Origin: Candidatus Kaiserbacteria bacterium
GTDB lineage: Bacteria > Patescibacteriota > Minisyncoccia > Phycocordibacterales > Phycocordibacteraceae
Length of the DNA stretch: 64,000 nt
Reading direction: 5' to 3'
NCBI GenBank assembly: GCA_027451665.1
Contig: DAIDIW010000001.1
Span: 95,359 to 159,358, forward strand
Positions 575 to 62,514 of this stretch are shown in pieces; position 1 is the stretch's first letter, and each line of letters begins with the position of its first letter. The translations under genes and the position numbers were made by a program. The notes below the pieces were generated by a model, which was given only the letters and a program-made list of their open reading frames with translations, had not been told where the DNA came from and did not search any database.

Positions 575-1129
575 ATGAATATCACCAAGGAAAAGCAACA
601 GACCGCCTACGATTCGCTCTCGGAACGCTTCGGCTTCACGAGCGCGATGCAGGCGCCACGCATCGAGAAAGTCGTCGTGTCGACCGGCGTCGGCAAGAAG
701 CGCGATGCGAAGACCATCGAGCTTATCGAGGATCGCCTCATGAGCATCACCGGTCAGAAGCCGTCCCAGCGCGCGGCGCGTATGTCGATTGCGTCCTTCA
801 AGGTTCGCGAGGGCGACACGGTCGGCCTCCAGGTGACGCTCCGCGGCGCGCGCATGTATGACTTCCTCGACAAGCTCATCCACATCGCGCTCCCGCGCAC
901 CCGCGACTTCCGCGGTCTCTCGAAGAGGGCCATCGACGAGATGGGGAATCTTACGATCGGCGTGAGGGAGCACACCATCTTCCCTGAGACTTCTGACGAG
1001 GACGTGAAGGACGTGTTCGGGCTCGCGATCACCATCGTGACCAACTGCAAGAACCGTGAGGAGGCGGAGGCCTTCTTCAATCACCTCGGCGTCCCGTTCA
1101 AGAAGGAAGAGGAGAAGCGCCGCAAATAA
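575..1129 (+). CDS. rplE: 50S ribosomal protein L5
   Basis: MNITKEKQQTAYDSL...FGFTSAMQAPRIEKVVVSTGVG is an L5 signature. The start is set at the ATG at 575 rather than the longer ORF start at 500, which overlaps rplX. Confidence 0.9.
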   Translation: MNITKEKQQTAYDSLSERFGFTSAMQAPRIEKVVVSTGVGKKRDAKTIELIEDRLMSITGQKPSQRAARMSIASFKVREGDTVGLQVTLRGARMYDFLDKLIHIALPRTRDFRGLSKRAIDEMGNLTIGVREHTIFPETSDEDVKDVFGLAITIVTNCKNREEAEAFFNHLGVPFKKEEEKRRK

Positions 1130-1154
1130 CCGGTGCGTATACAATCGGTATCTG

Positions 1155-1182
1155 ACGCGGACGGCCCGAAGGCCGTCCGCGT
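1155..1182. terminator. GC-rich hairpin after rplE (GACGCGGACGGCC-CGAA-GGCCGTCCGCGT)
   Basis: 12-13 bp inverted repeat with a 4-nt loop located 26 nt after the rplE stop. It has no T-tract, so its terminator function is uncertain. Confidence 0.3.
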
Positions 1183-1294
1183 GCGTCATTGTGCGTTCGC
1201 GACTGGCCTCTCTCCTGCTCATATGTACGGGCGGCTTGACCGGAAAGCTATTGAAGGTATGGTGAGTCCGGATCTACGGAGAAAGGGAACCGGT

Positions 1295-1519
1295 ATGCGC
1301 GTCATGGATCATCTGAGAATCGCTATCCTCATCCTCACTGCGTACGCATTCGCAGTCATAGCCGCAGGGCAGGGGTATCTTTGGTTGCCGAGTATCGTCG
1401 TGCACGGTCCGCAGGGCCCGGATTTCTCCATGCGCGGGCTGGTATCGCTGCTTTCCGACGGGGTGGTGCTCACCGGCTTGAGTGCGGCCTGCTGGATGCT
1501 TGATGCGAAGCGAACATAG
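1295..1519 (+). CDS. Small hydrophobic membrane protein (~74 aa) inserted between rplE and rpsN
   Basis: The ORF MRVMDHLRIAILILTAYAFAVIAAGQGYLWL... contains two predicted TM segments. A purine-rich AAAGGGA lies 8 nt upstream of the ATG. The gene is flanked by GC hairpins. No recognisable family. Confidence 0.35.
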   Translation: MRVMDHLRIAILILTAYAFAVIAAGQGYLWLPSIVVHGPQGPDFSMRGLVSLLSDGVVLTGLSAACWMLDAKRT

Positions 1520-6113: not shown

Positions 6114-6201
6114 GTATGATCCGATTATACCGGTTCAGGAGTGCATCCGCTACGGACGACCGCGTATGGAAAGCTGCCGCTGCATGGGGTAGAGTGTCCC
6201 T

Positions 6202-6798
6202 ATGTCTACCAGCTCGCGCGAGACGCGCACCATCTTGTTCATCGGTCGTCCCGGATCCGGCAAGGAGACGCAGGCTCGCCGTCTCGCCGAGGACACAGGG
6301 TTTCATCTATACTCGACTGGCGAGCGTTTCCGCGAACTGCGTGAGCATCGTGATGCTCTAGGGCAGCGCGTGAAAGAAGTCTATGACACGGGTCGTCTTA
6401 TGCCCACGTGGTTTGCCGACTACCTTTTCGAGGACGCCTTGCTGAGGCTTCCGTACGGCACCGGCGTAATTTTCGAAGGCACCGGGCGCTGGCGCGCGGA
6501 GGCGGAGCTCTTTGATGAGGTCGCTGCCTGGCTCGGTCGGCCGTATCTCGTCGTGCATCTTGACGTGCGTGAGGAAGAAGCGATGCGACGGCAGCTCGCA
6601 CGTGCACAGACGAAAGAGCGTCCGGACTCAAATTCCGAAGATAAGATACGGATTCGTTTTCGTGAATTCAACGAGCATACGCAGAAAGCAATCGATTTCT
6701 TCGAAACGAAGGGCAAGGTTCTGCGCGTGAACGGCGAGCAACCGCCGGATGCGATCACTGCGGAAATCCGCGAGAAGCTCGGGCTCCGACTGCTATGA
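6202..6798 (+). CDS. adk: Adenylate kinase-like nucleoside monophosphate kinase
   Basis: ILFIGRPGSGKETQARRLAEDTGFHLYSTGERFR (P-loop plus NMP-binding). The conserved position between secY and map supports the call. Confidence 0.7.
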   Translation: MSTSSRETRTILFIGRPGSGKETQARRLAEDTGFHLYSTGERFRELREHRDALGQRVKEVYDTGRLMPTWFADYLFEDALLRLPYGTGVIFEGTGRWRAEAELFDEVAAWLGRPYLVVHLDVREEEAMRRQLARAQTKERPDSNSEDKIRIRFREFNEHTQKAIDFFETKGKVLRVNGEQPPDAITAEIREKLGLRLL

Positions 6799-8088: not shown

Positions 8089-8700
8089 ATGGCACATCCT
8101 AAGACCGAACGCACGCTCGTCATCGTGAAGCCCGACGGGGTGCAGCGCTCACTCGTGGGCGAGATTATCAAGCGCCATGAAAACGTGGGCCTCAAGCTCG
8201 TCGCCATAAAGATGATGACGGCCGAAGCAGGTCATGTCGAACAGCATTACACTCTCGATCCTGAATGGCGCCGCGTAACCGGTGAGAAGACCATCGCGGG
8301 CTACAAGGAGAAAGGGCTCACACCGCCGTCCGAAGACCCGTACGAAATCACGGCCGCTATCCTCGAAGGACTTAAGAAATATATGGTCGCGGGTCCGATT
8401 ATTGTCATGGTGTGGGAGGGAGCGCATGCCGTGAAGATCGTCCGCAAGCTCGTAGGTTCGACCGAGCCGCTCGGAAGCGCTCCGGGTACCATACGCGGTG
8501 ACTACGTCCTCGACTCGTATCAGATGGCCGACACGGACACGCGCGCCGTGCGCAATCTCATCCATGCCTCCGGCTCGCCTGCGGAAGCGGAAGCGGAAAT
8601 CAAGCATTGGTTCAAGCCACAGGATCTTATTGCGTATCGGCGCATGCAGGATGCAATCGTCTACAACCCTGAACTCGATAATTATCTCGGTGAGGGGTGA
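8089..8700 (+). CDS. ndk: Nucleoside diphosphate kinase with an internal insertion (203 aa)
   Basis: TLVIVKPDGVQRSLVGEIIKRHENVGLKLVAIKMM and NLIHASGSPAEAEAEIKHWF are Ndk motifs. The protein is about 60 aa longer than canonical Ndk. Confidence 0.85.
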   Translation: MAHPKTERTLVIVKPDGVQRSLVGEIIKRHENVGLKLVAIKMMTAEAGHVEQHYTLDPEWRRVTGEKTIAGYKEKGLTPPSEDPYEITAAILEGLKKYMVAGPIIVMVWEGAHAVKIVRKLVGSTEPLGSAPGTIRGDYVLDSYQMADTDTRAVRNLIHASGSPAEAEAEIKHWFKPQDLIAYRRMQDAIVYNPELDNYLGEG

Positions 8701-8930
8701 CCGCGATGCTCGTGTTCACGAAACGGATGGACCCAGCGGGTTCATCCGTTTCCCCAGGCACTTCCATTGATTAGGGCGTATACTGTCCTCGGAGCTGCCT
8801 TAAAAAACGCAACTTGCTCTTTTTAAGGGCGGCCCGAAAATATTTCGCTTGGTCTAGGAGTGCTCACGCGTTCCGTCGCCAGGCGATAGGGCTCCCACGT
8901 AGCACTACAAAGTTGCTACCTTAGGCGGCT

Positions 8931-8970
8931 CCACTAGAAAATCCCACGTATTCGTGGGATTTTCTAGTGG
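8931..8970. promoter_or_regulatory. 40-bp perfect palindrome CCACTAGAAAATCCCACG-TATT-CGTGGGATTTTCTAGTGG
   Basis: Read directly from the sequence. 18-bp arms with a 4-nt spacer lie in a lower-GC 290-bp intergenic region and end 22 nt before the ATG of the downstream ribonuclease gene. Confidence 0.45.
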
Positions 8971-8992
8971 AGGTGCGTGCTACAGTCTATCC

Positions 8993-10390
8993 ATGGCACT
9001 CACACTCACTCCCTACGGCGCAGCGGGCACCGTCACCGGCTCCAATTTCATGATCGAGACCGACAAGGCGAAGGTTCTCGTCGATTGCGGGATGGAGCAG
9101 GGCGCCGACTTCTGCGAGAAGGCGATGTACGAGAAATTTCCATATGACCCCTCGGCTGTCGATGCGCTTGTGCTTACCCATGCGCATCTCGATCACGTCG
9201 GCCGCATCCCGAAGCTCGTGAAGGAAGGCTTCCGGGGGAAGCTTTACATGACCGAACCAACGAAGGACCTCGCCGAGCTCATCTTGCAGGATTCGGTGGG
9301 CATCCTCTTCGAGGACGCGAAACATTTGGGCGTGGATCCGCTTTTCACGCAGGATGATGTCGATGCCACCCTCCCGCTTATCGAGACTATCCCGTATCAC
9401 GAGGAGAAGGAGATTGCGCCCGGCATGACGGCCTACCTGCGCGATACAGGCCATATTCTCGGTTCTGCGAGCGTCCGATTGACCGACACGGCTGACAGCT
9501 CATCCTTGGCGCTTACAGGCGATATCGGCAATTCCCCATCGCCTCTGCTTCCGGATTTCGAGCCTGTCTCGGATGCCGATGCGGTTCTTATGGAGAGCGT
9601 GTACGGAAACCGCCTTCATCCGGACGAGAAGGGTCGTGTGGAGCACCTGCGCGATACTTTGAAAGCGGCTATCGACCGTGGCGGTAATATCCTCATCCCG
9701 GCGTTCTCAATCGAGCGCACGCAGCTCATGCTCTACGAGCTGAGCAACTTCTTCGAGGACGGCTCATTGCCAAAGATCCCGGTCTATCTCGATTCGCCCT
9801 TGGCCATAAACGTGACCCGCGTCTATGAAAAGTGGGGCGCGAACTATTTCAAGCAAGCGGCGGAGAAGGAGATGAAGCAGGAGGGCTCCTTGTTCGAGTT
9901 CCCGTTCCTCACGAAGACCCTCTCGCGCGATGAGTCGAAGGAAATCGCGAACGATCACCGACAAAAAATAATTATCGCAGGTGCGGGTATGAGCCATGGC
10001 GGACGCATCGGCATCTGGGAAGAGAAATACCTGCCCGACACGAAGACTTCGCTCATCATCGTGGGCTATCAGGCGCCCGGCTCTCCGGGCCGCCGTATGG
10101 TGGAGGGCGACAAGAAAGTTACGATCCGTCATCGGGACGTGGATGTGCGTGCACACGTGGAGATCCTTGAAGGCTGGTCAGGGCATGCGGACCGTGATGG
10201 GCTCTTACGGTTCGCAGAGGGATGCCTCAAAGGCGGTCGCGTGAAGACAATCTTCGTTGCGATTGGAGAGCCGTCCGCGGAGCGCTTCCTTGCGCAGCGC
10301 ATCCATGATTACCTCGGCGGCCATGCGGTCGTCCCAGAAGCGCAGGAGTCCTGGAGCATCACAAAAGGAGAAGAAGCGAGGAAGGCATAA
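8993..10390 (+). CDS. MBL-fold beta-CASP family RNA-processing ribonuclease
   Basis: Metallo-beta-lactamase motif ALVLTHAHLDHVGRIPKL (HxHxDH). Downstream Asp/His beta-CASP motifs (GHSGHAD). 466 aa. Confidence 0.75.
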   Translation: MALTLTPYGAAGTVTGSNFMIETDKAKVLVDCGMEQGADFCEKAMYEKFPYDPSAVDALVLTHAHLDHVGRIPKLVKEGFRGKLYMTEPTKDLAELILQDSVGILFEDAKHLGVDPLFTQDDVDATLPLIETIPYHEEKEIAPGMTAYLRDTGHILGSASVRLTDTADSSSLALTGDIGNSPSPLLPDFEPVSDADAVLMESVYGNRLHPDEKGRVEHLRDTLKAAIDRGGNILIPAFSIERTQLMLYELSNFFEDGSLPKIPVYLDSPLAINVTRVYEKWGANYFKQAAEKEMKQEGSLFEFPFLTKTLSRDESKEIANDHRQKIIIAGAGMSHGGRIGIWEEKYLPDTKTSLIIVGYQAPGSPGRRMVEGDKKVTIRHRDVDVRAHVEILEGWSGHADRDGLLRFAEGCLKGGRVKTIFVAIGEPSAERFLAQRIHDYLGGHAVVPEAQESWSITKGEEARKA

Positions 10391-10424
10391 GGAAAACCGC
10401 CGCCCCTTGGGCGGCGGTTTTCCT
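10391..10424. terminator. Bidirectional intrinsic terminator GGAAAACCGCCGCC-CCTT-GGGCGGCGGTTTTCC
   Basis: Perfect 14-bp GC stem flanked by an A-tract and a T-tract. It lies between the convergent ribonuclease and rplT genes. Confidence 0.65.
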
Positions 10425-10806: not shown

Positions 10807-11001
10807 CTATTTCGCACCGGAAGCAGGGAGGAAGCGCCGCTTCACACTTTTTGTGAGAGCAATTGTGACCGAACCGCGCTTACCGCGTCGCACAGAACCC
10901 GACGCCTTCGCGTTGAAATGATTTTGGCCAGGCTTGCGTGCGACGAGCTTACCCTTGCGGGTGACACGGATGCGCTTCGTATAGGATTTATTGGTTTTCA
11001 T
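10807..11001 (-). CDS. rpmI: 50S ribosomal protein L35
   Basis: MKTNKSYTKRIRVTRKGKLVARKPGQNHFNAK is an L35 pattern. The start is set at the internal Met rather than the 80-aa ORF start. Confidence 0.8.
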   Translation of the reverse strand: MKTNKSYTKRIRVTRKGKLVARKPGQNHFNAKASGSVRRGKRGSVTIALTKSVKRRFLPASGAK

Positions 11002-11557
11002 GGTTGGTATGCTCTGCTTCCTCGCGTTTTTTCTGCGCGGCGAGGTCACGCTCGATGACGCCGGCGTAGCCCTTCGGGCTCTTCGTTATCGGCTCCGCCA
11101 TCTTGAACGCGTACGGGATGCGCTTCAGGAACATATCGAGGCGGCCCTTGAGGAACTCCTCGCCCATGCCCTTATACCGGCCCTTGAGGAAGATCTCGGC
11201 CCGGACCCGGTGACCCTCGGAAAGCCATTCTGCGGCCTTCTTGGCCTTCAGGTTCTGGTCGTTGTCGCTCGTACCGACCTTTATCTGGACTTCCTTGGTT
11301 TCCGAGACCTTAGCCTTGGCCTTGACAGCCTTCTCCTTCTTCCGTCGTTCGTATTCGAATTTACCATAATCGGCGATTCTCGCAACGGGCGGGTTCGCGT
11401 TCGGGCTGATCTCTATAAGGTCGAGTCCGGAGCGTTCTGCAGCCGCGAGCGCCTCGCGCACTGATAGCACGCCGAGATTCTCCCCGTCGCTCCCGATGAC
11501 GCGCAATGCATCTGCACGAATCTCGTTATTGATCCTGAGTCGGTCTTGAATGGCCAC
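10988..11557 (-). CDS. infC: Translation initiation factor IF-3
   Basis: INNEIRADALRVIGSDGENLGVLSVREALAAAERSGLDLIEISPNANPPVARIADYGKFEYE matches the IF-3 N and C domains. Conserved infC-rpmI-rplT order. Confidence 0.85.
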   Translation of the reverse strand: MAIQDRLRINNEIRADALRVIGSDGENLGVLSVREALAAAERSGLDLIEISPNANPPVARIADYGKFEYERRKKEKAVKAKAKVSETKEVQIKVGTSDNDQNLKAKKAAEWLSEGHRVRAEIFLKGRYKGMGEEFLKGRLDMFLKRIPYAFKMAEPITKSPKGYAGVIERDLAAQKKREEAEHTNHENQ

Positions 11558-11703
11558 GTGTAGTGCAAGAAATATACCAGGAATCAGTGGAAATGGGAAG
11601 AATGGATGAAGCTCCTACGGGAGGGAGATGGAAGAGGATGCGAGAGAGCTTCATCTCGGCTTGGCCTTGGCAGCTCATGCATGGTAGTGCCGATTCAGGG
11701 AAT

Positions 11704-11943
11704 CTCCTTGAAAACCCACCCTAAGCGTATACTCTCCACGGGCACCCATTGAGTAAGGATGCCTGTCTGGATCGAGTAGATCTGAGAGACATTGTGTTGG
11801 GCATTGACCGCATATGAAGCGGCACCTCATGGAGGTGCTAGTCCTCTTACCTCCAGCTGATTCTAATCTTCTGGAAGTAGAAACTACTGTCGCGTAGCCG
11901 CCTTCGGGCGGCTTTCGCGTGCTTAGGGTGGGTTTTCAAGGAG
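11704..11943. repeat. 240-bp lower-GC element bounded by perfect 24-bp terminal inverted repeats (candidate MITE or structured RNA)
   Basis: CTCCTTGAAAACCCACCCTAAGC at 11704-11726 is exactly reverse-complementary to 11921-11943. The interior is about 50% GC and contains a GCCGCC-TTCG-GGCGGC tetraloop hairpin and a GCACCTC-CATG-GAGGTGC hairpin. Confidence 0.5.
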
Positions 11944-12073
11944 CTTCAGAGAACAAACATTAGTGGACGAAATAGTTATGTAGCTAGGGAATAGGTGTGA
12001 GGATATCCCCAATGGAGGATTCATGGGGAAGCGGTAGAGTATGGGCCTAGCACTAATTGCTGAATTATCGAAT

Positions 12074-12604
12074 ATGAAGTTTGTCGCTATTTCCGGAAGT
12101 CTCCGCAAAGATTCTTTTAATACGAAGCTCCTAAAGGTCATGCAGGAGCTCGCGCCCGAAGATGTGCAGATCGAGATCTTGAGTGCCGCGCTGCCGCTTT
12201 ATAACCAGGATGATGAAGCCTCCTATCCGGCACCCGCAAAGGCACTCAAGGATGCGGTAAATGCCGCCGATGCGGTCATCCTCTCGACTCCCGAATACAA
12301 CCGTTCCTACTCCGGTGTTCTGAAGAATGCCATTGACTGGCTATCGCGGCCCTACGGCAGCAACTCGTTCGCGGGGAAACCGGTGCTCGTCGCCGGCGTC
12401 TCAATCGGCAGGATTGGCACAGCGGTCGGCCAGAGCCATCTGAAACAAGTGATGGTGTACCTCGATGCGAAGCTCGTCGGTCAGCCCGAGCTTTATCTCG
12501 GCCCCGGGAACGACCTATTCACTGAAGACGGTACTCTTCGCGACGATTCGACCCGTGAGCTCGTGAAGCAGGCGCTTGCGGCGCTTGCGGCGCGCGCGGG
12601 ATAG
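12074..12604 (+). CDS. NAD(P)H-dependent FMN reductase family protein (flavodoxin-like fold)
   Basis: MKFVAISGSLRKDSFNTKLL ... AVILSTPEYNRSYSGVLKNAIDWLSRPYG is the typical NADPH-dependent FMN reductase signature. Confidence 0.75.
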   Translation: MKFVAISGSLRKDSFNTKLLKVMQELAPEDVQIEILSAALPLYNQDDEASYPAPAKALKDAVNAADAVILSTPEYNRSYSGVLKNAIDWLSRPYGSNSFAGKPVLVAGVSIGRIGTAVGQSHLKQVMVYLDAKLVGQPELYLGPGNDLFTEDGTLRDDSTRELVKQALAALAARAG

Positions 12605-12612
12605 GGAACGTG

Positions 12613-12652
12613 ATCAAAACGCCGCACGCCCATAGGGCGTGCGGCGTTTTGA
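12613..12652. terminator. Intrinsic terminator ATCAAAACGCCGCACGCCC-ATAG-GGCGTGCGGCGTTTTGAT
   Basis: Perfect 15-bp stem flanked by an A-tract and a T-tract, directly after the FMN reductase stop. Confidence 0.65.
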
Positions 12653-12661
12653 TGCTACCGT

Positions 12662-19675: not shown

Positions 19676-19705
19676 ACGGGGCGTGGTGCGCGGTATACTG
19701 GCCGC

Positions 19706-24081: not shown

Positions 24082-24223
24082 GCAGAACGTAGCGTAGCAT
24101 GCGTCTGCGGGAGAAAGACGCGGCATATCCACGCGCGTTCCATACATCCGACGCGTCGCACGCGAAACCGCCCGGATACTCGGGCGGTTTCGCGTGCGAA
24201 CGACGAACACGAGCGTCGCAATC

Positions 24224-30622: not shown

Positions 30623-30659
30623 TGTTCGAGACGGATCGTTAGAAGAAAGCCGCGGCGCT

Positions 30660-31437
30660 CTACGCGCCGCGGCTTTCTTCTGCGGGCGGCAGTTCAGGCG
30701 GCTGTTCGTTATAGGTCACGACCTCCCAGCCGCGCCGCGCATTCCAGGCTTTCCAAGGATGCCACTCGCAGACCGTTATGGCGGCGTTATCCGACGCGTT
30801 GAAGAAGGAGAGCTTCACATAGTCCGCGGCGTGTAGATCGTTTCGATAGAGCAGGAAGGCGATGAGCATCTTGAGGAAGATGCTATGCGTGACGACGCAG
30901 GTTTCGCGGCCGCCTTCTTGCGCGAGGTACGTGAGGCAGTCCTTCGCCCGGTGCTTGAGGTCGATGAAATTCTCTTCGTCCGAATAGCGGTAGTCGTCTC
31001 CGTGGTAGCCCTTATCCATTGCGTCCACGATGCGCGCGACCTGGGGCTCATCACCATGCCTGCCGATTATCTCGGACGGATTGCGGCGTTCGCCGAGCAA
31101 ACGGGAATACCGTATCGGCACATGCAGGTGCGTATGTATGATGTCGGCGGTCTCGCGTGCGCGCTCGAACGGGCTCGCGAGTATGAGCGTGATGGGAAAG
31201 TGCGCAAGGTAGCGGCCAGTGCGTTCGGCCTGCGTTCGGCCTCGCGGCGAAAGCGGTCCCGCCTCTCCCTGACGGATTCCTTGCGCGTTCAGCACGGTTT
31301 CGCCGTGTCGTACGAAATAGTATCGCCGTGGGCGCATCCATATAAGAAGGAGAAGGAGGAGGATAAGAGTAAGGGCGACGGCGAGCCCGAAAGGCATTAA
31401 AAGCGCCGCAATGAGCGCCTTATAGACGTAACCTGTC
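30660..31437 (-). CDS. Histidine phosphatase (phosphoglycerate mutase) family protein with N-terminal TM helix
   Basis: RHGET motif YYFVRHGETVLNAQGIRQG follows a TM segment. The downstream catalytic His region CVVTHSIFLKML is present. Confidence 0.65.
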
Positions 31438-31536
31438 ATGCGCGCAGTATACCGTGCAGGATGGCGCAGTGGCGGCCGTATACCTGCGCAGATGCAGCAT
31501 TTTGCAGAATTGGTTAGAACGCCGTAGTATGGGTGC

Positions 31537-54634: not shown

Positions 54635-54705
54635 AGCGGGGTAGAGGAGAGGTACCTCGGGAGGCTCATAACCTCCAGACGCGGGTTCGATTCCCGCCCC
54701 CGCAA
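54635..54705 (+). tRNA. tRNA-Met (anticodon CAT), possibly initiator-like
   Basis: Anticodon loop CTCATAA. T-arm GCGGG-TTCGATT-CCCGC. D-arm GAGG-AGAGGTA-CCTC with A11:U24. Acceptor AGCGGGG/CCCCGCA has an unpaired 1:72. The 4-nt variable loop and 5' end are uncertain by 1 nt. Confidence 0.7.
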
Positions 54706-54725
54706 CACGGTTGTGACGCCAGGAA
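54704..54725 (+). repeat. Left direct repeat (att-like) AACACGGTTGTGACGCCAGGAA
   Basis: 22-nt exact match to 58452-58473. Confidence 0.7.
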
Positions 54726-54775
54726 CTGCTTCCGGCCCCCATTAAGGCCAGTACAGTACCGCTCGGCATCACGTA

Positions 54776-54807
54776 CGCAAAAGCCGCCCGAAAGGGCGGC
54801 TTTTGCG
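54776..54807. terminator. Hairpin CGCAAAAGCCGCCC-GAAA-GGGCGGCTTTTGCG
   Basis: Perfect 14-bp stem with a GAAA tetraloop just inside the island left end. Confidence 0.5.
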
Positions 54808-54874
54808 TATTGGACAGATGTTGCGGGTAGTCGTATTCTGTGGTCATGCACGGGATACGCGCGTCTACAATTTT

Positions 54875-56059
54875 ATGCAGATCACGGTCAAACGAAAAAA
54901 TTCGGCCATCCTCGATGACACTGTCGTACGGGCGGTTCTCGGTATGTACCCCGAAGAGAAACTTGTCGAGCGACCCCTTTTTGAAGAAGGGCTAAGCGGT
55001 ACGCCCATTGATTTTCAGGATTTCCGCGATGAGTGCGATAAGATCCTCATCCCCTGGCAGATGTTCCTCCTAAGCAAGGTGAACCTTGCCACCGAACTCG
55101 GGCATATTGAATCACAGCGACAGAAGGTTTCCCAAAAGCTTTTTGCGAAGAGGCGAGGTAACGGTAACGTTACCTCGAAACGTATTATTGACCGTCTTAT
55201 TCGCTGTCAGAATTACGTAACTACGAATGGTACTTTCCCGAAGCATGCGTTCTCTGGCTCCTTGAATGGGATGCAGACCATAGATGCGGCTGCTCATATT
55301 GTCGCCTACTTCGGTATCGATATGAGAGTCTTTCGCAGCAAGAAAAAGGCAGAAGCTCTTTCATATCTCATCAAACGGCTAGAAGAGAACAACATCAATG
55401 TCTGCCAAGGAGTACTCACTAACAAGATTCTTCCACAGGTGGATGGAGTGCGAGAAGTATACAAAGGCACCAGCGGTTTTGCTATTAAGGACGAGAAGGT
55501 GCCGTTCGTCTTTATTCCCAGTGAAATTAATCCCAACGAGAAGGATGGGAGACAAATCTACACCTTGGTATATCTCATGACGGTAGTCGGTCTCGAACAG
55601 TACGAGTTCATCCTCAATAAGGATTTCAAGGTCAGTCTCCTTGCGTCTCGCGGTCTGCAAAAGCGGATTTACGATATTACTTCTGAATTCTTGCTCCCGA
55701 GAGCAAAGACGGAGCAGTATCGCGGAATAACGATTACGGAAACTATCCGTGACGACCTCTCGACTGCCTACAAGATAACTCCGTCGGCAGTAACGGTTAT
55801 TTTCAGAAAACGTGGCCACATCCCTGACCAGGCCGTATATGAGGCGCTCTTGCCGGATCCCCAGCCTGTTGTCTCTGATAATGGACCGCGCCGACAACCG
55901 GGCATTGAAGCGTCGGTAAGGAAGTTTAACGGCAAGCATGTCTGCGATCTTGCGAACCCAGCGATTAAGAGCCGTGCTCTATTTCCAGTCCAGGCGCAAT
56001 ATTTGCTCTTTGGTTCGGTGAACAAGAAGGGATTTAAGGACTACCAAAAAACGCTATGA
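54875..56059 (+). CDS. Hypothetical protein, island cargo gene 1 (~394 aa)
   Basis: GC is ~47%. No Walker, nuclease or other motif is recognisable by eye. A TACAAT -10-like hexamer sits at 54866 just upstream. The start is set at MQITVKR after the hairpin. Confidence 0.45.
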   Translation: MQITVKRKNSAILDDTVVRAVLGMYPEEKLVERPLFEEGLSGTPIDFQDFRDECDKILIPWQMFLLSKVNLATELGHIESQRQKVSQKLFAKRRGNGNVTSKRIIDRLIRCQNYVTTNGTFPKHAFSGSLNGMQTIDAAAHIVAYFGIDMRVFRSKKKAEALSYLIKRLEENNINVCQGVLTNKILPQVDGVREVYKGTSGFAIKDEKVPFVFIPSEINPNEKDGRQIYTLVYLMTVVGLEQYEFILNKDFKVSLLASRGLQKRIYDITSEFLLPRAKTEQYRGITITETIRDDLSTAYKITPSAVTVIFRKRGHIPDQAVYEALLPDPQPVVSDNGPRRQPGIEASVRKFNGKHVCDLANPAIKSRALFPVQAQYLLFGSVNKKGFKDYQKTL

Positions 56060-56493
56060 AAATCATCGACAATAATGGTCTTAATCACGTTCTTTCAAAT
56101 GGGATTCATCTTACGGAACCCTACTTCATCACGCCTGATGTCAAAGAAGAATATGAAGTAGAGCACGACAAGCTTCCGCATAACGTCAAACCTATTTTCG
56201 GAGAAGAATGGTTCGATAGTGCTGCGTATCTCCTGAATTACCAAACGGTGCTAAATCGGCGGGATGGTCGCTCTTTCTACAATATGACTGGATTTGGCGA
56301 TGTCTCCATCGTTGCGGCGCTAATGACCCTCAAGGCGTCGTGTGCAGGTATGCTTCCAGTCATGATTGAGGATCACGTTGTTATTACCGGGGATGTTGGT
56401 CTCACACGCCAGCTCATGGATGAGTTTAATGATACAGCCAATGAGTTCGACCAAAAGATGCAGGTTATTCGGCCTCAGGACTATGGTTGGTAA
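56056..56493 (+). CDS. Hypothetical protein, island cargo gene 2 (145 aa). Weak PIN-like features.
   Basis: The start overlaps the upstream stop (ATGA). The N-terminal MKIIDNNGL with Asp at position 5 and the later acidic residues (EDHVVITGD, DEFND) are reminiscent of PIN nucleases but not diagnostic. Confidence 0.45.
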   Translation: MKIIDNNGLNHVLSNGIHLTEPYFITPDVKEEYEVEHDKLPHNVKPIFGEEWFDSAAYLLNYQTVLNRRDGRSFYNMTGFGDVSIVAALMTLKASCAGMLPVMIEDHVVITGDVGLTRQLMDEFNDTANEFDQKMQVIRPQDYGW

Positions 56494-56707
56494 ACGTACG
56501 GGAGTATACTGATGACAGTTGTGACCTTCGACCTGAGGGGACAGACGGTTCGATTCCAGAAACCATGATGTATGTGCTCGTGATCTTGGCGAACGTAGTT
56601 CTGCTTATTAGTGCGTGCGTAACGCCTATTTCTGCTATGAAAAACGCCACAGTCGCTTGTAGCTATGTTCAAGGGAATGGCATGGACCCTCACGTCAAAG
56701 CTCGTAA

Positions 56708-57871
56708 CTAAAGACCAGTTGCTACTGTACCGGCGTCTTCGTTTTCACAATCGAGTGAAATTTTCCTATCTTTCAATACTAGTCTCCCGCGCAATTGCTC
56801 AAGTAGCTCGCGCTTCTCTTCGACTGTACCAGCTTCGAGTAAGTACTTCGCGTAGCGTTTGATGTCTATGTCTTTCGGCTTCTCCCATTCTTTCACTCCA
56901 AGCACCTGCGCCTGCATGTGGTTGAAGCGGGCAATTTCCTTATCGATAATCTGTCGCGCGCCGAGCCGGTCTATCTCGATCTCGTCGATAATATTACCGA
57001 GTTGTTCGATAAGCGCATCCTCGCGGATATAGGGATTCTTGCAGCGTCTGTCCCGTGTGCGGTTGCAGACGTAATAGCGGTAGAAGACGGATTTGCCGGT
57101 GGTTCGCAGGATTTTCTCCTTTTCAAGGCAGGTGATGCCCGATCCGCATTCTCCACACGTCATCATCTTTGTGAACGCGAATCCTTGGTATTTCTTTCGA
57201 GGACTCGTCTCCTCAGTGATTTTCTTTCGCACCGCCTCGAATAGCTCTCTCGTGATGAGCGCTTCGTGCTTACCGACGTACCAGTTGCCCGACCCACGTG
57301 GGTATTCGAAGACGCCGCAGTAGAAGGGATTCTTAAGAAGTTCATACAGCGTTCCTATACTCATATCCTTGCCACTCCGCGTCTTGAATTTCACTTCTTC
57401 CTTGAGCCAGTGATACACGCGCACGCCGCTCCACTTGTCTCGACCTACTTTCTCGAAGATCATCTTCACGATAGGGGAGCGGATTGGGTCGAGCAGGTAT
57501 TCGCATTTATGATCTGATCGATTGTCGTTCAGATACCCGACCGGCGCCCAGCCGGGAAGGGTAATTAGATCTTTTGCGGGTTCAGGAGACCATGGGCATA
57601 CAAACATAAGCTGAGGTTCCCGGATGGTTATTGCTTCATTGCCACGCTGGGTACACAAGATTGCCGTAGGACGATAGGCGCAAAACGCACATGAACGCGT
57701 GCATGCCGGGCACGAAAGGGATAGCGCGAGAACGAAAGATGTGGTACAGTGGGACAATGAGAGGGCCTGACTTAGACCGCGAGCGCAGCGAGCGGAAGCA
57801 TTCCCGTGGCGAGTTTCTCGCGCTCTATAACGAGGGCCTGCCGAGCGGATTCCCGCGCGCGACCGCCGCAC
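56708..57871 (-). CDS. Large serine recombinase remnant: recombinase domain, zinc ribbon and coiled-coil only. The N-terminal catalytic resolvase domain is absent.
   Basis: APVGYLNDNR...IVKMIFEKV...YHWLKEEVKFKTRSGKDMSIGTLYELLKNPFYCGVFEY is the recombinase domain. CGECGSGITC...YYVCN is the Zn ribbon. No S-x-x-Q/R catalytic motif appears in any frame upstream. GC rises at ~57650, suggesting truncation. Confidence 0.6.
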   Translation of the reverse strand: MRRSRAGIRSAGPRYRARETRHGNASARCARGLSQALSLSHCTTSFVLALSLSCPACTRSCAFCAYRPTAILCTQRGNEAITIREPQLMFVCPWSPEPAKDLITLPGWAPVGYLNDNRSDHKCEYLLDPIRSPIVKMIFEKVGRDKWSGVRVYHWLKEEVKFKTRSGKDMSIGTLYELLKNPFYCGVFEYPRGSGNWYVGKHEALITRELFEAVRKKITEETSPRKKYQGFAFTKMMTCGECGSGITCLEKEKILRTTGKSVFYRYYVCNRTRDRRCKNPYIREDALIEQLGNIIDEIEIDRLGARQIIDKEIARFNHMQAQVLGVKEWEKPKDIDIKRYAKYLLEAGTVEEKRELLEQLRGRLVLKDRKISLDCENEDAGTVATGL

Positions 57872-57996
57872 TCCTCGCCGAATATCGTCGTACGCACATC
57901 GACCAATTCAAGGGCGAGCACTGGTCGCTCGACCTGCATCGCAAGAAGGTGATGGACTGGCTCCCGGTCCGCCTGGACGCGCTCAAGAGCCGATAG
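57739..57996 (+). CDS. Possible small protein (~85 aa)
   Basis: ORF MWYSGTMRGPDLDRERSERKHSRGEFLALYNEGLPSGF... lies at the GC transition. Weak call. Confidence 0.2.
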   Translation: MWYSGTMRGPDLDRERSERKHSRGEFLALYNEGLPSGFPRATAALLAEYRRTHIDQFKGEHWSLDLHRKKVMDWLPVRLDALKSR

Positions 57997-58116
57997 GACC
58001 GCAGGACGATCCGTGCTAGTATACGGGCATCAACCAGCGCTGAACCAGTCGAGTCCGGTTCGAGCCTCTTCTCCAGCCTCTGCATTGATACCTAGACAAA
58101 ATATATCCAATCGCAC

Positions 58117-58323
58117 ATGCAAGAAGGAACAATTACCCGTCTCGTTACTGAAAAAGGCTTCGGCTTTATCAAGGTGGAGGGACAGGAGAAGGACCTTTTC
58201 TTCCATTCCAATGAGCTCGTCGGCGTTTCATTCGACTCGCTCAAGGAGGGAGACAAGGTAAGCTTCGAGATCGCGGACAGCCCGAAGGGCCCGAACGCGG
58301 TCAAGGTCACGAAGGTGGCGTAA
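58117..58323 (+). CDS. cspA: Cold-shock protein (CspA family)
   Basis: GTITRLVTEKGFGFIKVEGQEKDLFFHSNEL carries the RNP1 (KGFGFI) and RNP2 (DLFFH) motifs. 68 aa. Confidence 0.9.
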   Translation: MQEGTITRLVTEKGFGFIKVEGQEKDLFFHSNELVGVSFDSLKEGDKVSFEIADSPKGPNAVKVTKVA

Positions 58324-58334
58324 ACAGTCACGAT

Positions 58335-58373
58335 GAAAACGACGCCCCCTTATGGGGGGTCGTTTTCATTTTA
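58335..58373 (+). terminator. Rho-independent terminator after cspA
   Basis: GAAAACGACGCCCCC-TTAT-GGGGGGTCGTTTTC followed by a T-rich tract. Confidence 0.65.
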
Positions 58374-58451
58374 TAGTATCTATAAGGGGGAAGACGATTG
58401 CCAAAGGAGCCCCAAACACCTCACCTGACGGGTACGGTATTCAGACGGGCA

Positions 58452-58473
58452 AACACGGTTGTGACGCCAGGAA
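58452..58473 (+). repeat. Right direct repeat (att-like) AACACGGTTGTGACGCCAGGAA
   Basis: 22-nt exact match to 54704-54725. Confidence 0.7.
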
Positions 58474-58644
58474 TCAGTACCGACAGGCCTAAAAACGGCT
58501 CAAAATTGGACCCCGAAATGACCCTAAGATGCGTCGCATTTCAGGGAGAAGTCTGGGTTCCATTCATCATTACTCCCGTGTTCGCCTTTTTACCCCAGGC
58601 GGTCTATAGTGCCGTGAGAGTCGGCACCACAGAGGAGCTGCCAC

Positions 58645-59199
58645 ATGCCAACGAGCAGAAATATCGCCCAGGCGGAGTTTTCCCATGTCGGCGGTAATGC
58701 GAATGCGTCGCTCGAGAGCGTCATAGCGGAATGCCAAGAACGGATCGCGGACGGCGTCGAAATGGCTTTGAACGGTCGGAGCGCCAGGAGCGGAATAAAG
58801 ACCACGGTCAGGTTCCTGGACCGATCCGGTGGACTCACGAAGCTTGCAAAACGGTCCGAAGCGCTGAAGAGGAAACGGGCGGCGTTGCACTATCGCTTCC
58901 CGAAACTTACCGGCATACGGCGTTCATGTGCGAATATCCGGAGCAGGCATCTCGAGGGGAAGGCCCGGAGACTTCGAGCGGAGGTACATTCCGTCTCGAT
59001 CCGTGAGCTGCTATCCGCCCTCATGATCGGACAGACGGTAGCCGTCGAACAGCCTGATCGTACGTTCCGCTTAGTTCGCCGGGATGAGACGTATGAGCTC
59101 ATGGAAGCGGTAGCGCGCTCGCAGACCGCCTGGCTTTTTGTCTTCGCTCCAAATGATCTTTTCGCCGACGAAAATGTACTAATCGCGTCGGCGATGTAA
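58645..59199 (+). CDS. Hypothetical protein (184 aa)
   Basis: ORF with no recognised motif. A hairpin plus T-tract follows at ~59213-59250. Confidence 0.35.
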   Translation: MPTSRNIAQAEFSHVGGNANASLESVIAECQERIADGVEMALNGRSARSGIKTTVRFLDRSGGLTKLAKRSEALKRKRAALHYRFPKLTGIRRSCANIRSRHLEGKARRLRAEVHSVSIRELLSALMIGQTVAVEQPDRTFRLVRRDETYELMEAVARSQTAWLFVFAPNDLFADENVLIASAM

Positions 59200-59290
59200 C
59201 AGTGCGATGCTCGTGCATCAACTGCCCTCCCTGTAACAGGGGAGGGTTTTCATCTGGGGCAAACCCGTTGATGGTGTAATGCGTTCAGTA

Positions 59291-59320
59291 TTGACTTTAT
59301 TGTGCAATGTGTGTGATAAT
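59291..59320 (+). promoter_or_regulatory. Sigma-70-like promoter TTGACT-N18-GATAAT with extended TGTG
   Basis: It lies in the AT-rich 200-bp intergenic region upstream of the ORF at 59401. -35 is at 59291-59296 and -10 at 59315-59320. Confidence 0.35.
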
Positions 59321-59400
59321 CAAAACGAACGTACTTTCACGTTGCACTGATATCCATTACTCCCGTCCGTATCGGGATTCTGCAATCATGGAGGGTCTAT

Positions 59401-59982
59401 ATGTTCTGTGGGTCGACAATCCAATCGTTACTGCATGGGGATACTACGCTTTCTGTCGTTCGTACGGTCTTCCTCGAGGAAGTAAAAGGCAAGCCTACCC
59501 GTGAATGTTGTCGGGGCGGAGGAGACTGGTACTTTCGGGATGAGAATCTCGATACCTGGCTCGATGCCGAACAGCCTGATGCTGCCGCGTGTGCAATAGC
59601 GGTATGCGGAAAAAGCGTCAACTGGACGTTCGAGGACATGGTTCGCAGTCATCCGGGCGCTCCAAAGAAGGCGAATGCCATCGAACTGGGCCGCTGGCTG
59701 ATTCAGAGCGGGCACGCGCTCACGCTCCCGCAGGTAGAAATTCTCTGCGAACGTACCGGACGCGGAGAAGATACCGGCCTGCGGACGATTGGCGCCCACG
59801 GAGTCTTCTGCGTCCTTGAAACGTCTCACACGGACGCGCCGGCCCCGGTACTCCGCATCGGAAGGCTGGATGCTCCCAACCGGCCTCGGTGGGGTATCGG
59901 TGTCGGTCGGTTGAGTCACAAGTCTCCGATGCCTGCGCGTTCACGTTTTCTCTTCCGGGGTCCGGACACCGCAAGAGCATGA
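59401..59982 (+). CDS. Hypothetical Cys-containing protein (193 aa)
   Basis: ORF. CCRGGGDWYF and CAIAVCGKS motifs are of unknown significance. Confidence 0.35.
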   Translation: MFCGSTIQSLLHGDTTLSVVRTVFLEEVKGKPTRECCRGGGDWYFRDENLDTWLDAEQPDAAACAIAVCGKSVNWTFEDMVRSHPGAPKKANAIELGRWLIQSGHALTLPQVEILCERTGRGEDTGLRTIGAHGVFCVLETSHTDAPAPVLRIGRLDAPNRPRWGIGVGRLSHKSPMPARSRFLFRGPDTARA

Positions 59983-60145
59983 TCTTTGCGGGTGGTTCCA
60001 TACCTGGTACACCCCTCTCTCGTACCGCGAGGAGGGGTGTTTCTTTATGCCTTCCGAGGGCACTTTCTCGAGGGTGGTCGCGGGGCTTGAATCACACAAT
60101 GCATTGTAGTAATGTCGAGAACGGAACGCGTCGAAAGGGGACGAA

Positions 60146-60757
60146 ATGCCCGTACACAACACAAGGAATGCGGCTGATCAGGAATTTGAAAGGGGCTTGG
60201 CGAAGGTGATGCTCCCGCTTCGCAAATTCACCCATCATCTTGCGGGAGCCGAGGGAGAAGACCTGCTTCAGGAGACCCTCACCCGCGCCTGGGAAAACCG
60301 GCATCAATTCACTCCCGGGACTAGTCTTGCGGCGTGGATCTTCACGATTGCGCGCCATCTACATTACTCCGCGCACAAGCGTAGATCGAGGCATATGCAG
60401 TTAGATCCTGAGTATGCCGAACGCACCATCCAGTCTGCCGATGGCCGTGCACAAGTAGAATCGAGGTCTGAGCTGAGTCACGTCGCGACCTGCCTTACCA
60501 CCCTCACCGAGCCGCAGGTCGCGGCACTCCTCTGGATCGCGTGCGAGGGTCTGCACTATGCAGACATTGCCGATCGCCAGCAGTGCGACATAGGAACGGT
60601 AAAGTCTCGCGTTTCGCGTGGCCGCCGGGAGTTGAAGCGTATAGCGGAGAGTGGAATGCCCGTTCCGGATATACATCCCGGACGGCTGGCGCGGATTGTC
60701 GAGTATTTGAAAGGAGTGAGCGAGGCCGAGATACTGACCTCGGCAACCGCCTTCTGA
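60146..60757 (+). CDS. ECF-type sigma-70 family factor (second copy)
   Basis: Region 2 LLQETLTRAWENRHQFTPGTSLAAWIFTIARHLHYSAHKRR and region 4 ALLWIACEGLHYADIADRQQCDIGTVKSRVSRGRRELK. Confidence 0.75.
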   Translation: MPVHNTRNAADQEFERGLAKVMLPLRKFTHHLAGAEGEDLLQETLTRAWENRHQFTPGTSLAAWIFTIARHLHYSAHKRRSRHMQLDPEYAERTIQSADGRAQVESRSELSHVATCLTTLTEPQVAALLWIACEGLHYADIADRQQCDIGTVKSRVSRGRRELKRIAESGMPVPDIHPGRLARIVEYLKGVSEAEILTSATAF

Positions 60758-60851
60758 GGTAGGGATGCGGTAAAGGAGAGCTGCACAGCAGCTCTCCTTT
60801 TTGTACCGTTTTCCGATACCGGAGTAAAAGCTTATACTACGCGGATTCGTC

Positions 60852-61610
60852 ATGCGTACCCTCGTCTCATTTGTGGTGAGCCTTGCCGTAGGCGCATCCT
60901 CATTTCTTGGATTCGCACACATGCATCCGCATGCGAGCGCGGTCGCGGCGCCTGCCGGGGCCGCGCTGGTTAGAAGCGCTTCGCCTATCGTCGTTCATCC
61001 GATCTATCTGTCGTTCGATATGGATATGAACGGATTTATGTACCGGAAGTCGAGACGCACAGGGAGGATCTGGTACGATCCGGCGCTGTTCGCCTATCTT
61101 GAGCAGCATCATATTCCGGCGACCTTCTTCGTCTCGGGGCTCTTCGCCTCCACCTATCCGGATCTGTTGCGGAGCCTCGCCTCGACGAGCCAGTTCGCGT
61201 TCGAAAATCATAGCTATGATGAATCGTCCTTCACGCCGCATTGCTATTGGCTGCGGACGCTCACGACGAATACGCAGAAGACCCAGCAGATTCAGGAAAC
61301 GGAGCAGCTTATCAAGCGCTATACCGGCCAGACCGCGACCTATTTCCGCTTCCCGGGGGACTGTACGAATGCTGAGAATGATGCCTTTGTCCGCAAACTC
61401 GGGTATGTGGTAAATGACGGGACCGATATCGCCGGAGACCCATTCAACAGGAATATGCGCGCCATCGTGCATGCCGTACTCTCGGACGCGACGACAAGCG
61501 CCACCATTCTCATGCACATCGGCGGGCCGAACGCTCCTGAGAGCCTTGTCGCACTTAAGCAGATTATGCCAGCCCTTTCCGCGGAAGGGTATCGGTTCGA
61601 GCGTCTGTAG
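60852..61610 (+). CDS. Polysaccharide deacetylase (CE4/NodB homology) family protein, secreted
   Basis: Signal peptide, then NodB-like motifs IYLSFDMD (degenerate TFDDG), HSYDE and RFPGD. Confidence 0.55.
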   Translation: MRTLVSFVVSLAVGASSFLGFAHMHPHASAVAAPAGAALVRSASPIVVHPIYLSFDMDMNGFMYRKSRRTGRIWYDPALFAYLEQHHIPATFFVSGLFASTYPDLLRSLASTSQFAFENHSYDESSFTPHCYWLRTLTTNTQKTQQIQETEQLIKRYTGQTATYFRFPGDCTNAENDAFVRKLGYVVNDGTDIAGDPFNRNMRAIVHAVLSDATTSATILMHIGGPNAPESLVALKQIMPALSAEGYRFERL

Positions 61611-61768
61611 GATCGTTCTGTCGCATCTTTGGGTGACCTCGTGCGTAATAAGGAACGGCATCTCGGCAATCCACAGGGTGGCTTTTGAAAAGGGAGGTCA
61701 GGCTCCATACTAGTCTCGCTCTCTTGGCCGGGAGCCGTTCGCATTAATAAAGTTATTTATCACTAAAC

Positions 61769-62422
61769 ATGTCAAGGAAAGTAATCGCTGCGCTCGGAAT
61801 CATCGGTTTTCTTGCGTCAGCGGGTGTAGCGTTCGCTCAGACCACGACGAGCAATCCGATGCCGATGGTTCTCCACGTCGGAGTGAACGGCAATGTGCTT
61901 CTGCGCGGGACGGTCAGTTCGGTGTCTTCCGGTTCGCTCACGGTGAAAAGCTGGGGCGGGGATTGGACGGTGAACGTTCCTTCTTCAGCCGAAGTGCTCC
62001 CGAGCGGCACTGCGCTCACGAGTTTCCAGCAGGGCGATTTCGTAGGAGTAGTCGGCTCGATAAATTCGAGTGCAGACTTTACGGTTGATGCTACGATCGT
62101 GCGCGACTGGACGGCACGCGCGGCGCTCAATCAGCAGATCCATACGAATGTGCAGCAGGCCCGCACGATTATGTCGAATCGTCCCCGCGTCACGCAGGGT
62201 ACGCTCTCGAATCTTGATGCGACGGCAGAAACCTTCACGCTCACGACCGCTGCAGGTACCGCGTATTCGGTCACGCTGAATTCCGGCGCTGAAACGATCG
62301 GAAGAAACTGGGCTACGATAGCGCTCACGCAGGCAAACACCGGTGATACGGTGCGCGTCTATGGCACCGTATCGAGCAGCACGATCGCTGCCTCGGTGTT
62401 CCGTGATGTTTCGGTGAAGTAG
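61769..62422 (+). CDS. Secreted DUF5666-like repeat protein
   Basis: Signal peptide MSRKVIAALGIIGFLASAGVAFA. Two repeats of the pattern GTVSSVSSGSLTVKSWGGDWTVNV / GDTVRVYGTVSSSTIAASVF. Confidence 0.5.
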   Translation: MSRKVIAALGIIGFLASAGVAFAQTTTSNPMPMVLHVGVNGNVLLRGTVSSVSSGSLTVKSWGGDWTVNVPSSAEVLPSGTALTSFQQGDFVGVVGSINSSADFTVDATIVRDWTARAALNQQIHTNVQQARTIMSNRPRVTQGTLSNLDATAETFTLTTAAGTAYSVTLNSGAETIGRNWATIALTQANTGDTVRVYGTVSSSTIAASVFRDVSVK

Positions 62423-62448
62423 TAGCTGCGCGTTTACTGCGCCTACGG

Positions 62449-62485
62449 CTCACAAAACGCCGCCCGAAGGGCGGCGTTTTGTGAG
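62449..62485. terminator. Bidirectional terminator CTCACAAAACGCCGCCC-GAA-GGGCGGCGTTTTGTGAG
   Basis: Perfect 17-bp stem between convergent genes. Confidence 0.65.
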
Positions 62486-62514
62486 CACCCGTACCGCTTT
62501 CGAAGAAAGCTTGG

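Follow-up and report, generated by a model that had tools for sequence, protein, structure and literature searches.

In invertons, such as fimS, C. difficile cwpV and flgB, and the Bacteroides PS loci, inverted repeats of 20-30 bp lie around a promoter segment of 150-300 bp that is placed between divergent genes. Among bacterial MITEs, QMITE2 has a core of 113-145 bp between terminal inverted repeats (TIRs) that measure 23-29 bp, promoters within MITEs are common, and the direct repeats that flank them decay with age (PMC10969869). Transcripts of the Correia/QMITE2 type form very stable hairpins, and internal promoters of the sigma-70 type are common in them (PMC10969869), while the TIR duplexes that arise in read-through RNA of such MITEs are substrates of RNase III (PMC10969869; PMC2229807). 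The interspersed repeat SPRITE imitates terminators (PMC10969869).

Here we describe a 240-bp inverted-repeat element in a window of 64 kb, the window being the whole stretch of DNA that was analysed. By its IF3 protein, the window belongs to Patescibacteria (CPR) and groups with Paceibacterota/Kaiserbacteria-like MAGs. The element lies between the divergent genes infC (10988-11557, minus strand), which stands in infC-rpmI-rplT, and an NADPH-dependent FMN reductase (PF03358; 12071-12604, plus strand). An earlier note on this DNA had placed it between these two genes, and the gene coordinates and the PF03358 match bear this position out. The best reading that we can offer, held tentatively and with a little less than even confidence, is an orphan MITE-like or IS-remnant insertion that is lineage-specific and non-coding. 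We refer throughout to the following features, from left to right.

11571-11599, minus strand: infC promoter-like site TTCCCA-17-TGgTATATT, with homologous TGCTATA(T/G)T boxes in relatives
11623-11700, minus strand: decayed 3' remnant of a PLD-family nuclease gene, abutting the left arm, with alignments to the related loci L084, L085 and L081
11704-11726, no strand: left inverted-repeat arm, 23 nt and perfect, continuing to 11700 with one mismatch
11727-11733, plus strand: GTATACT -10 promoter box, adjoining the inner end of the left arm and directed towards the core
11730-11888, plus strand: non-coding core, hairpin-rich in predicted folds only
11891-11919, plus strand: terminator-like hairpin CGCG-UA-GCCGCC-UUCG-GGCGGC-UUU-CGCG, directly inside the right arm
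11921-11943, no strand: right inverted-repeat arm, 23 nt and perfect, continuing to 11947 with one mismatch
11948-12001, no strand: AT-rich DNA of 54 bp (39% GC) that follows the right arm and ends where the sequence becomes homologous to relatives again

We found that the left arm, CTCCTTGAAAACCCACCCTAAGC, is the exact reverse complement of 11921-11943, and a check of the sequence upholds what the earlier note had read there; its title is right in calling the terminal repeats perfect, while their length is 23 bp and not 24. The gap between the arms is 194 nt. When the arms are extended outwards to 11700-11726 and 11921-11947, they reach 27 nt with one mismatch (T11703/C11944) and the element measures 248 bp, and the next pair inwards, G11727/T11920, is merely a G-U wobble in plus-strand RNA. 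Counting perfect inverted repeats with a gap of 20-1500 nt in 40 first-order Markov resamples of the window, we observe a longest repeat of 17 nt (mean 13.7) against the 23 nt of the element. The arm has no other match with up to three mismatches in the 64-kb window, and none in 100 shuffles. The inverted repeat is real, and chance is excluded by these statistics. The earlier note had held that a single copy with no homologues and no transcript would amount to a fortuitous palindrome; the lack of copies and homologues is indeed what we found in the collections searched, but the resamples and shuffles contradict the role given to chance. The lower GC content that it had described is also present, at 52.5% in the element and 58.7% in the window.

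Next, we consider the GTATACT box. The window contains 15 copies of the heptamer, where 2.05 would be expected, an approximately 7-fold enrichment (for example at 19693, 38992, 40625, 53946 and 63721 on the plus strand and at 31446 and 62861 on the minus strand), and at 7 of the 15 copies it stands 6-10 nt upstream of an ATG, as for leaderless genes, while one copy, at 8778, heads a conserved RNA. The enrichment, the spacing to ATG and the copy that heads an RNA gene indicate that GTATACT is the -10 box of this organism, largely for leaderless genes. As far as motif counts allow a judgement, this CPR genome would use a promoter type with a -10 box only, and leaderless mRNAs would be widespread in it; no obvious -35 consensus accompanies the GTATACT sites of the window. 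At the element, a start codon is absent downstream of the box, and transcription is predicted to start near 11740.

The predicted domains of the core are 11730-11778, 11783-11849, 11852-11875 and 11876-11888, the second of which includes a 7-bp hairpin, GCACCUC-AUG-GAGGUGC, at 11822-11838. Within the longer terminator-like hairpin, GCCGCC-UUCG-GGCGGC is nested at 11897-11912, so that the two hairpins described earlier, one of them with a UUCG tetraloop, are both recovered. A U run follows the terminator-like stem on the plus strand only, which is the orientation of the GTATACT box, and the 3' half of the hairpin is nearly identical to the intergenic terminator at 24156-24199. This is the only terminator-like hairpin of the element; it ends in three U residues only and fails a strict scan for terminators with five T, which returned none in 11300-12300 and which misses some of the long perfect terminators of the genome. 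The intergenic terminators of this genome form perfect hairpins of unusual length, with arms of 16-20 bp and loops of 3-6 nt (8929-8972, 10390-10424, 12613-12653, 24156-24199, 30641-30681, 62448-62486 and others). Their stems include both the A-tract and the T-tract, and these terminators are therefore bidirectional; the right arm sequence, GGGTGGGTTTTC, resembles the 3' half of such bidirectional terminators.

No credible ORF was found in the element, as had been stated before: the largest, of 22-51 aa, are spurious, crossing the arms or lacking a plausible start context, and the ORF of 51 aa has no relatives among 5.8 billion proteins. At the level of consensus sequences, the core is predicted to read as a plus-strand transcription unit of ~180 nt (~11740-11920). 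The sole promoter box stands inside the left arm, so that the long closing stem falls outside a transcript driven by that box; the stem of the arms would be a feature of the DNA, or would form only in read-through RNA.

Such a layout raises the alternative of a lineage-specific small RNA gene, in which GTATACT would drive a structured plus-strand RNA of ~180 nt up to 11891-11919 and the repeats would be incidental or would act as flanking insulators. The hairpin-rich, ORF-free core lies between a promoter box and a terminator on the same strand, the architecture is that of the conserved RNA at 8778-8972, and the 17-mer context of the box, GCGTATACTnTCCnCGG, recurs at 8776 in the promoter of that RNA. 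The core also folds better than its shuffles, with z = -3.2 on the plus strand and -5.4 on the minus strand (-8.4 and -11.5, respectively, when the arms are included). However, the predicted transcript alone reaches only z = -2.6 and its terminator has only the three U residues noted above; no homologue was found in the collections searched and no Rfam match at E <= 10. A paralogous relationship to the conserved RNA (8790-8972) was considered and rejected (profile E = 14), and a small RNA gene would leave unexplained both the perfect arms and their coincidence with the gene-loss breakpoint that we describe below. We consider such a gene possible but rather unlikely.

The conserved, structured RNA gene occupies 8776-8972 on the plus strand, between ndk (8089-8700) and a beta-CASP/RMMBL RNase gene (~8994-10390). 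Its GTATACT promoter at 8778 is followed by an RNA of ~145 nt (GGAGCUGCC...GGCGGCUCC) and, at 8929-8972, by a perfect terminator of 20 bp. Using nhmmer, we recovered 8790-8972 in syntenic position in over 30 related Paceibacterota loci, and RNAalifold on 24 sequences gave 30 pairs, 17 of which show compensatory changes; the invariant blocks are ACGCAACUUGC, CACCCAC(C/G)UGGCA and AAGUUGC. No family of Rfam 15 matched this RNA even at E <= 5-10. From its rod-like shape with a large internal loop one may speculate that it could be 6S-like, and it may be of more interest than the inverted-repeat element. For the present analysis it serves as a positive control, as the approach that fails for the element recovered here more than 30 homologues and 17 covarying pairs.

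The order of promoter, aptamer-like folds, terminator and gene could also be that of a riboswitch-like cis-regulatory leader of the FMN reductase, which is encoded on the same strand and whose start codon lies ~150 nt downstream of the terminator. In the window, a -10 box of the FMN reductase, TAGAGT, stands near 12035, downstream of the element, and a TAGAGT/TAGAAT box is kept in relatives. Orthologous genes in all relatives thus keep the proximal box and lack the element, no riboswitch family was matched and no conservation was observed, which together make a leader of this kind highly improbable.

We searched for copies, homologues and RNA families of the element. At gathering score, Rfam gave no match in the window other than two tRNAs; at E <= 10, it gave none in 11500-12100 except a nonsense miRNA match outside the element. 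Covariance models of Rfam families, including the L20 leader (RF00558), 6S, SRP, the FMN riboswitch and Y RNA, had no match, and ARAGORN reported nothing at the element. In 80+9 infC loci, blastn and nhmmer recovered no homologue of the intergenic region apart from the PLD remnant. The covariance search that the earlier note had proposed was thus carried out and matched no family, and its suggestion of a structured small RNA, taken as a conserved one, is not sustained, with no Rfam match at this threshold and no homologue in the 89 related loci.

The search for further copies, proposed in the same place, was equally negative. Short-word BLAST found no second copy in the window, and blastn, nhmmer and a scan for perfect inverted repeats found none in the 89 related loci (0.58 Mb). 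Four exact patterns of arm and core had no copy in IMG/VR, where the outer-arm 19-mer gave one viral match with a lone arm. In the JGI metagenomes, one arm 19-mer gave 0 matches and the outer-arm 19-mer gave 28, all of them single arms with neither a partner nor similarity to the core. The 28 metagenome matches and the viral one are therefore best taken as chance or coding matches, and the exact-pattern scans found no pair of arms at any spacing. In phage and plasmid collections, only chance matches of 27-28 nt were obtained. A target-site duplication had also been proposed for checking; no direct repeat is present at either candidate boundary, 11700/11947 or 11704/11943, the flanks being TTCAGG/GAAT...CTTC/AGAGAA. 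The element is absent from all relatives, and their site is not an empty one, holding instead 1.7-2.9 kb of other genes.

The comparison with relatives revealed a gene replacement at this locus. In the close relatives (L001 and L081-L089), IF3 is 90-92% identical, and all of them carry an RNase_H_2/DNA_pol_B_exo2 exonuclease gene and a PLDc_2 nuclease gene between FMN reductase and infC, with two further ORFs in one group. This interval spans 1.7-2.9 kb in these genomes and only 466 bp in the window. More distant relatives likewise have the PLD gene directly upstream of infC. One of the related loci, L076, carries a tmRNA gene at 1082-1492 (plus strand; Rfam, 93 bits), ~1.5 kb upstream of infC. 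The PLD protein has weak PADLOC matches of the DrmC/DpdK type; a defence island was considered as an explanation for the lost genes and set aside, the DrmC/PLD-type matches being only weak.

Homology to the 3' end of the relatives' PLD gene extends from the infC start to ~11700, precisely where the left arm begins on its outer side. A profile built from 37 PLD genes matches 11643-11672 (envelope 11623-11692), and the remnant is frameshifted and comprises ~80-140 nt within 11558-11700 on the minus strand; where the relatives' protein ends in SYQGKAEIKLS, the window reads SCQGQAEMKLS. The remnant is 74% identical to L085, as compared with 71% at infC third codon positions and ~73% for neighbouring functional genes. 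The infC promoter-like site lies between the element and infC, and the element is therefore outside the infC mRNA. On the other side, homology resumes at ~12002 in the FMN reductase upstream region, which includes half of the relatives' exonuclease terminator hairpin (TGGGGATATC). The breakpoints at ~11700 and ~12002 thus delimit window-specific DNA of ~300 bp, ~11700-12001. Its similarity to the lost genes or to the rest of the window is nowhere significant, and neither tblastn with four proteins nor the PLD profile detected exonuclease, PLD or extra ORF protein remnants in the window beyond the PLD 3' end.

Two candidate derivations from the lost PLD gene were also examined, namely that the right arm (GAAAACC-CACCCT) and the core segment CCAGACAGGCATCCTTAC are PLD-derived and that the GTATACT box is an inverted PLD promoter. 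In both cases the similarity was no better than in shuffled controls, and both were dropped.

A unique element exactly at the junction of a deletion and replacement, with no target-site duplication and with extra filler DNA (11948-12001) on one side, is also what a rearrangement scar might leave behind. On this account, filler DNA was used to repair the locus when the exonuclease and PLD genes were deleted, the short inverted duplication arose through fold-back or template switching, and nothing in it is mobile or functional. Against this stand the core and filler, which are without significant similarity to the relatives' deleted interval or to the rest of the window, and the by-eye similarities of arm and core to the PLD gene, which as stated do not exceed their controls. 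Fold-back repair would, moreover, leave unexplained a promoter box and a terminator placed symmetrically inside the arms. We regard a scar as unlikely.

Sister genomes offer a precedent for small mobile palindromic elements. In L007, we observe two copies (6128-6282 and 1191-1340; 86% identical) of a palindromic element of ~150 bp, with 20-bp outer repeats GAACCCATCyCAAAACCCCC, inner repeats of 16-17 bp and TA flanks. At the position of the second L007 copy, the closely related locus L006 is empty, reading GAGTAC/TA/TGACG (near 1405-1408); L006 carries the first copy at 6137-6288, with the 64-bp core, flanked by 17-bp repeats, inverted relative to L007. Other, unrelated hairpin insertions occupy the same ndk-RNA spacer in L037 and L015, and several relatives have none there. 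These insertions, together with the element of L006 and L007, indicate that small palindromic terminator-like mobile elements are normal in these genomes.

The window's element resembles that of L006 and L007 in its clade, its similar size class, its non-palindromic core and its intergenic position, and in perfect outer repeats with an A-tract and a C-run (GAACCCATCyCAAAACCCCC there, GAAkCTCCTTGAAAACCCACCC in the window). It differs in its core, which is without homology, and the resemblance of the TIRs is weak, at 14/22 positions and in part compositional. The L006/L007 element has at least two copies, an empty site and TA flanks, whereas the window's element has none of these. A TIR architecture common to the clade's MITEs, GAA-N6-T-N-AAAACC, was tried and rejected, because the strict pattern returned only the window's own pair; we therefore treat the likeness of the TIRs as a weak resemblance.

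The inversion between L006 and L007 also bears on a further alternative, that of an inverton, in which a site-specific recombinase would flip the 194-bp core between the 23-bp repeats and redirect the promoter to the FMN reductase or to infC. The geometry of the element fits known invertons, the inverted repeats do flank a promoter-bearing segment, and Correia elements have been reported to invert (PMC10969869). However, the neighbouring genes both have conserved promoters of their own, and the opposite orientation was not found in the collections searched. The nearest recombinase, and the only one in the 64 kb, is the fragment of a large serine recombinase at 56708-57871, 45 kb away. As the invertible unit contains the promoter with the terminator downstream of it, the transcript would be stopped before leaving the unit in either orientation. 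We judge an inverton at this locus to be very doubtful.

The recombinase fragment (minus strand) has Recombinase and Zn_ribbon_recom domains and is without a detectable N-terminal catalytic domain. It lies in a part of the window, 54635-62000, that begins with a tRNA-Met gene (54635-54706), followed by a run of ORFs with no Pfam matches, and that also contains an ECF-type sigma factor gene at 60146-60757. This region looks like an integrated element or its remnant.

Returning to the MITE-like or IS-remnant insertion, we base this reading in part on the mobile palindromic MITE-like elements of related genomes. The element has terminal inverted repeats and is small, non-coding and without a transposase, and its size, TIR length and stable fold agree with published bacterial MITEs (PMC10969869). 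Two perfect 23-bp repeats that bracket a 194-bp core, with a -10 box next to the inner end of the left repeat and an intrinsic terminator on the same strand next to that of the right one, would correspond to an insertion sequence minus its transposase gene. The earlier note's reading as a MITE can be retained in part: it agrees with the lineage-specific occurrence, the breakpoint at the left end, the layout of promoter and terminator and the precedent in the clade, and it is weakened by the missing flanking duplication and, in the collections searched, by the missing second copy, as MITEs form sets of multiple related copies. The right arm, which is set off from the right-hand breakpoint by 54 bp of filler DNA, counts against it as well. 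We know of no transposase with ends that match those of the element. The element looks, and probably behaved, like a MITE, a statement that does not extend to membership of a named family.

In terms of mechanism, we infer that the element would have been moved by transposition in trans, and that it entered, or came with, the stretch of ~300 bp now standing in place of the exonuclease and PLD-nuclease genes, its left end lying on the breakpoint in the PLD gene. A target-site duplication could have been lost along with the adjacent deletion. Today, the element would at most make the plus-strand transcript of ~180 nt (~11740-11920), presumably with no conserved role, and the arms would form a duplex of 23-27 bp only in read-through RNA. 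A more far-reaching proposal combines mobility and transcription, with the element as a mobile small RNA gene cassette of CPR bacteria that consists of a promoter, a structured RNA of ~180 nt and a terminator between TIRs, moves in trans and displaced the nuclease pair. Selection would then keep the arms perfect, the benefit being either transposition or the processing of read-through transcripts by RNase III, and in one variant of this proposal the core inverts. We hold such a cassette to be improbable.

If the MITE-like or IS-remnant reading is correct, the locus represents ordinary genome flux, and its wider consequence would be small unless other copies or a functional transcript come to light. 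It would indicate that small inverted-repeat insertions are acquired, and accessory nuclease genes lost, even in CPR genomes of ~1 Mb, here at a variable site beside infC. The side results, namely the GTATACT box, the mobile MITE of the sister genomes and the conserved RNA outside Rfam, are more useful than the element itself.

Overall, the element shares properties with several known systems. Its arms have the form of the window's perfect terminator hairpins with 16-20 bp stems, consisting of an A-tract, a GC-rich stem and a T-tract. The loops of those terminators are 3-6 nt long, whereas the arms of the element stand 194 nt apart, and hence the arms do not qualify as a terminator; the position between two divergent promoters also needs none. 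Like the invertons at fimS, cwpV, flgB and the Bacteroides capsule promoters, the element has short perfect repeats that flank a promoter segment of ~200 bp upstream of genes, but it differs from them in that no invertase is nearby and the internal terminator blocks the promoter both ways. The Correia and QMITE2 families comprise tens to hundreds of copies with target duplications of TA or 7-9 bp, neither of which we detected for the window's element, and, unlike in these families, its right end does not lie at a breakpoint. With the Correia repeat-enclosed elements of Neisseria and QMITE2 of Coxiella it nevertheless has in common a size within 100-250 bp, a non-coding sequence, TIRs within 23-29 bp and an intergenic position (PMC10969869).
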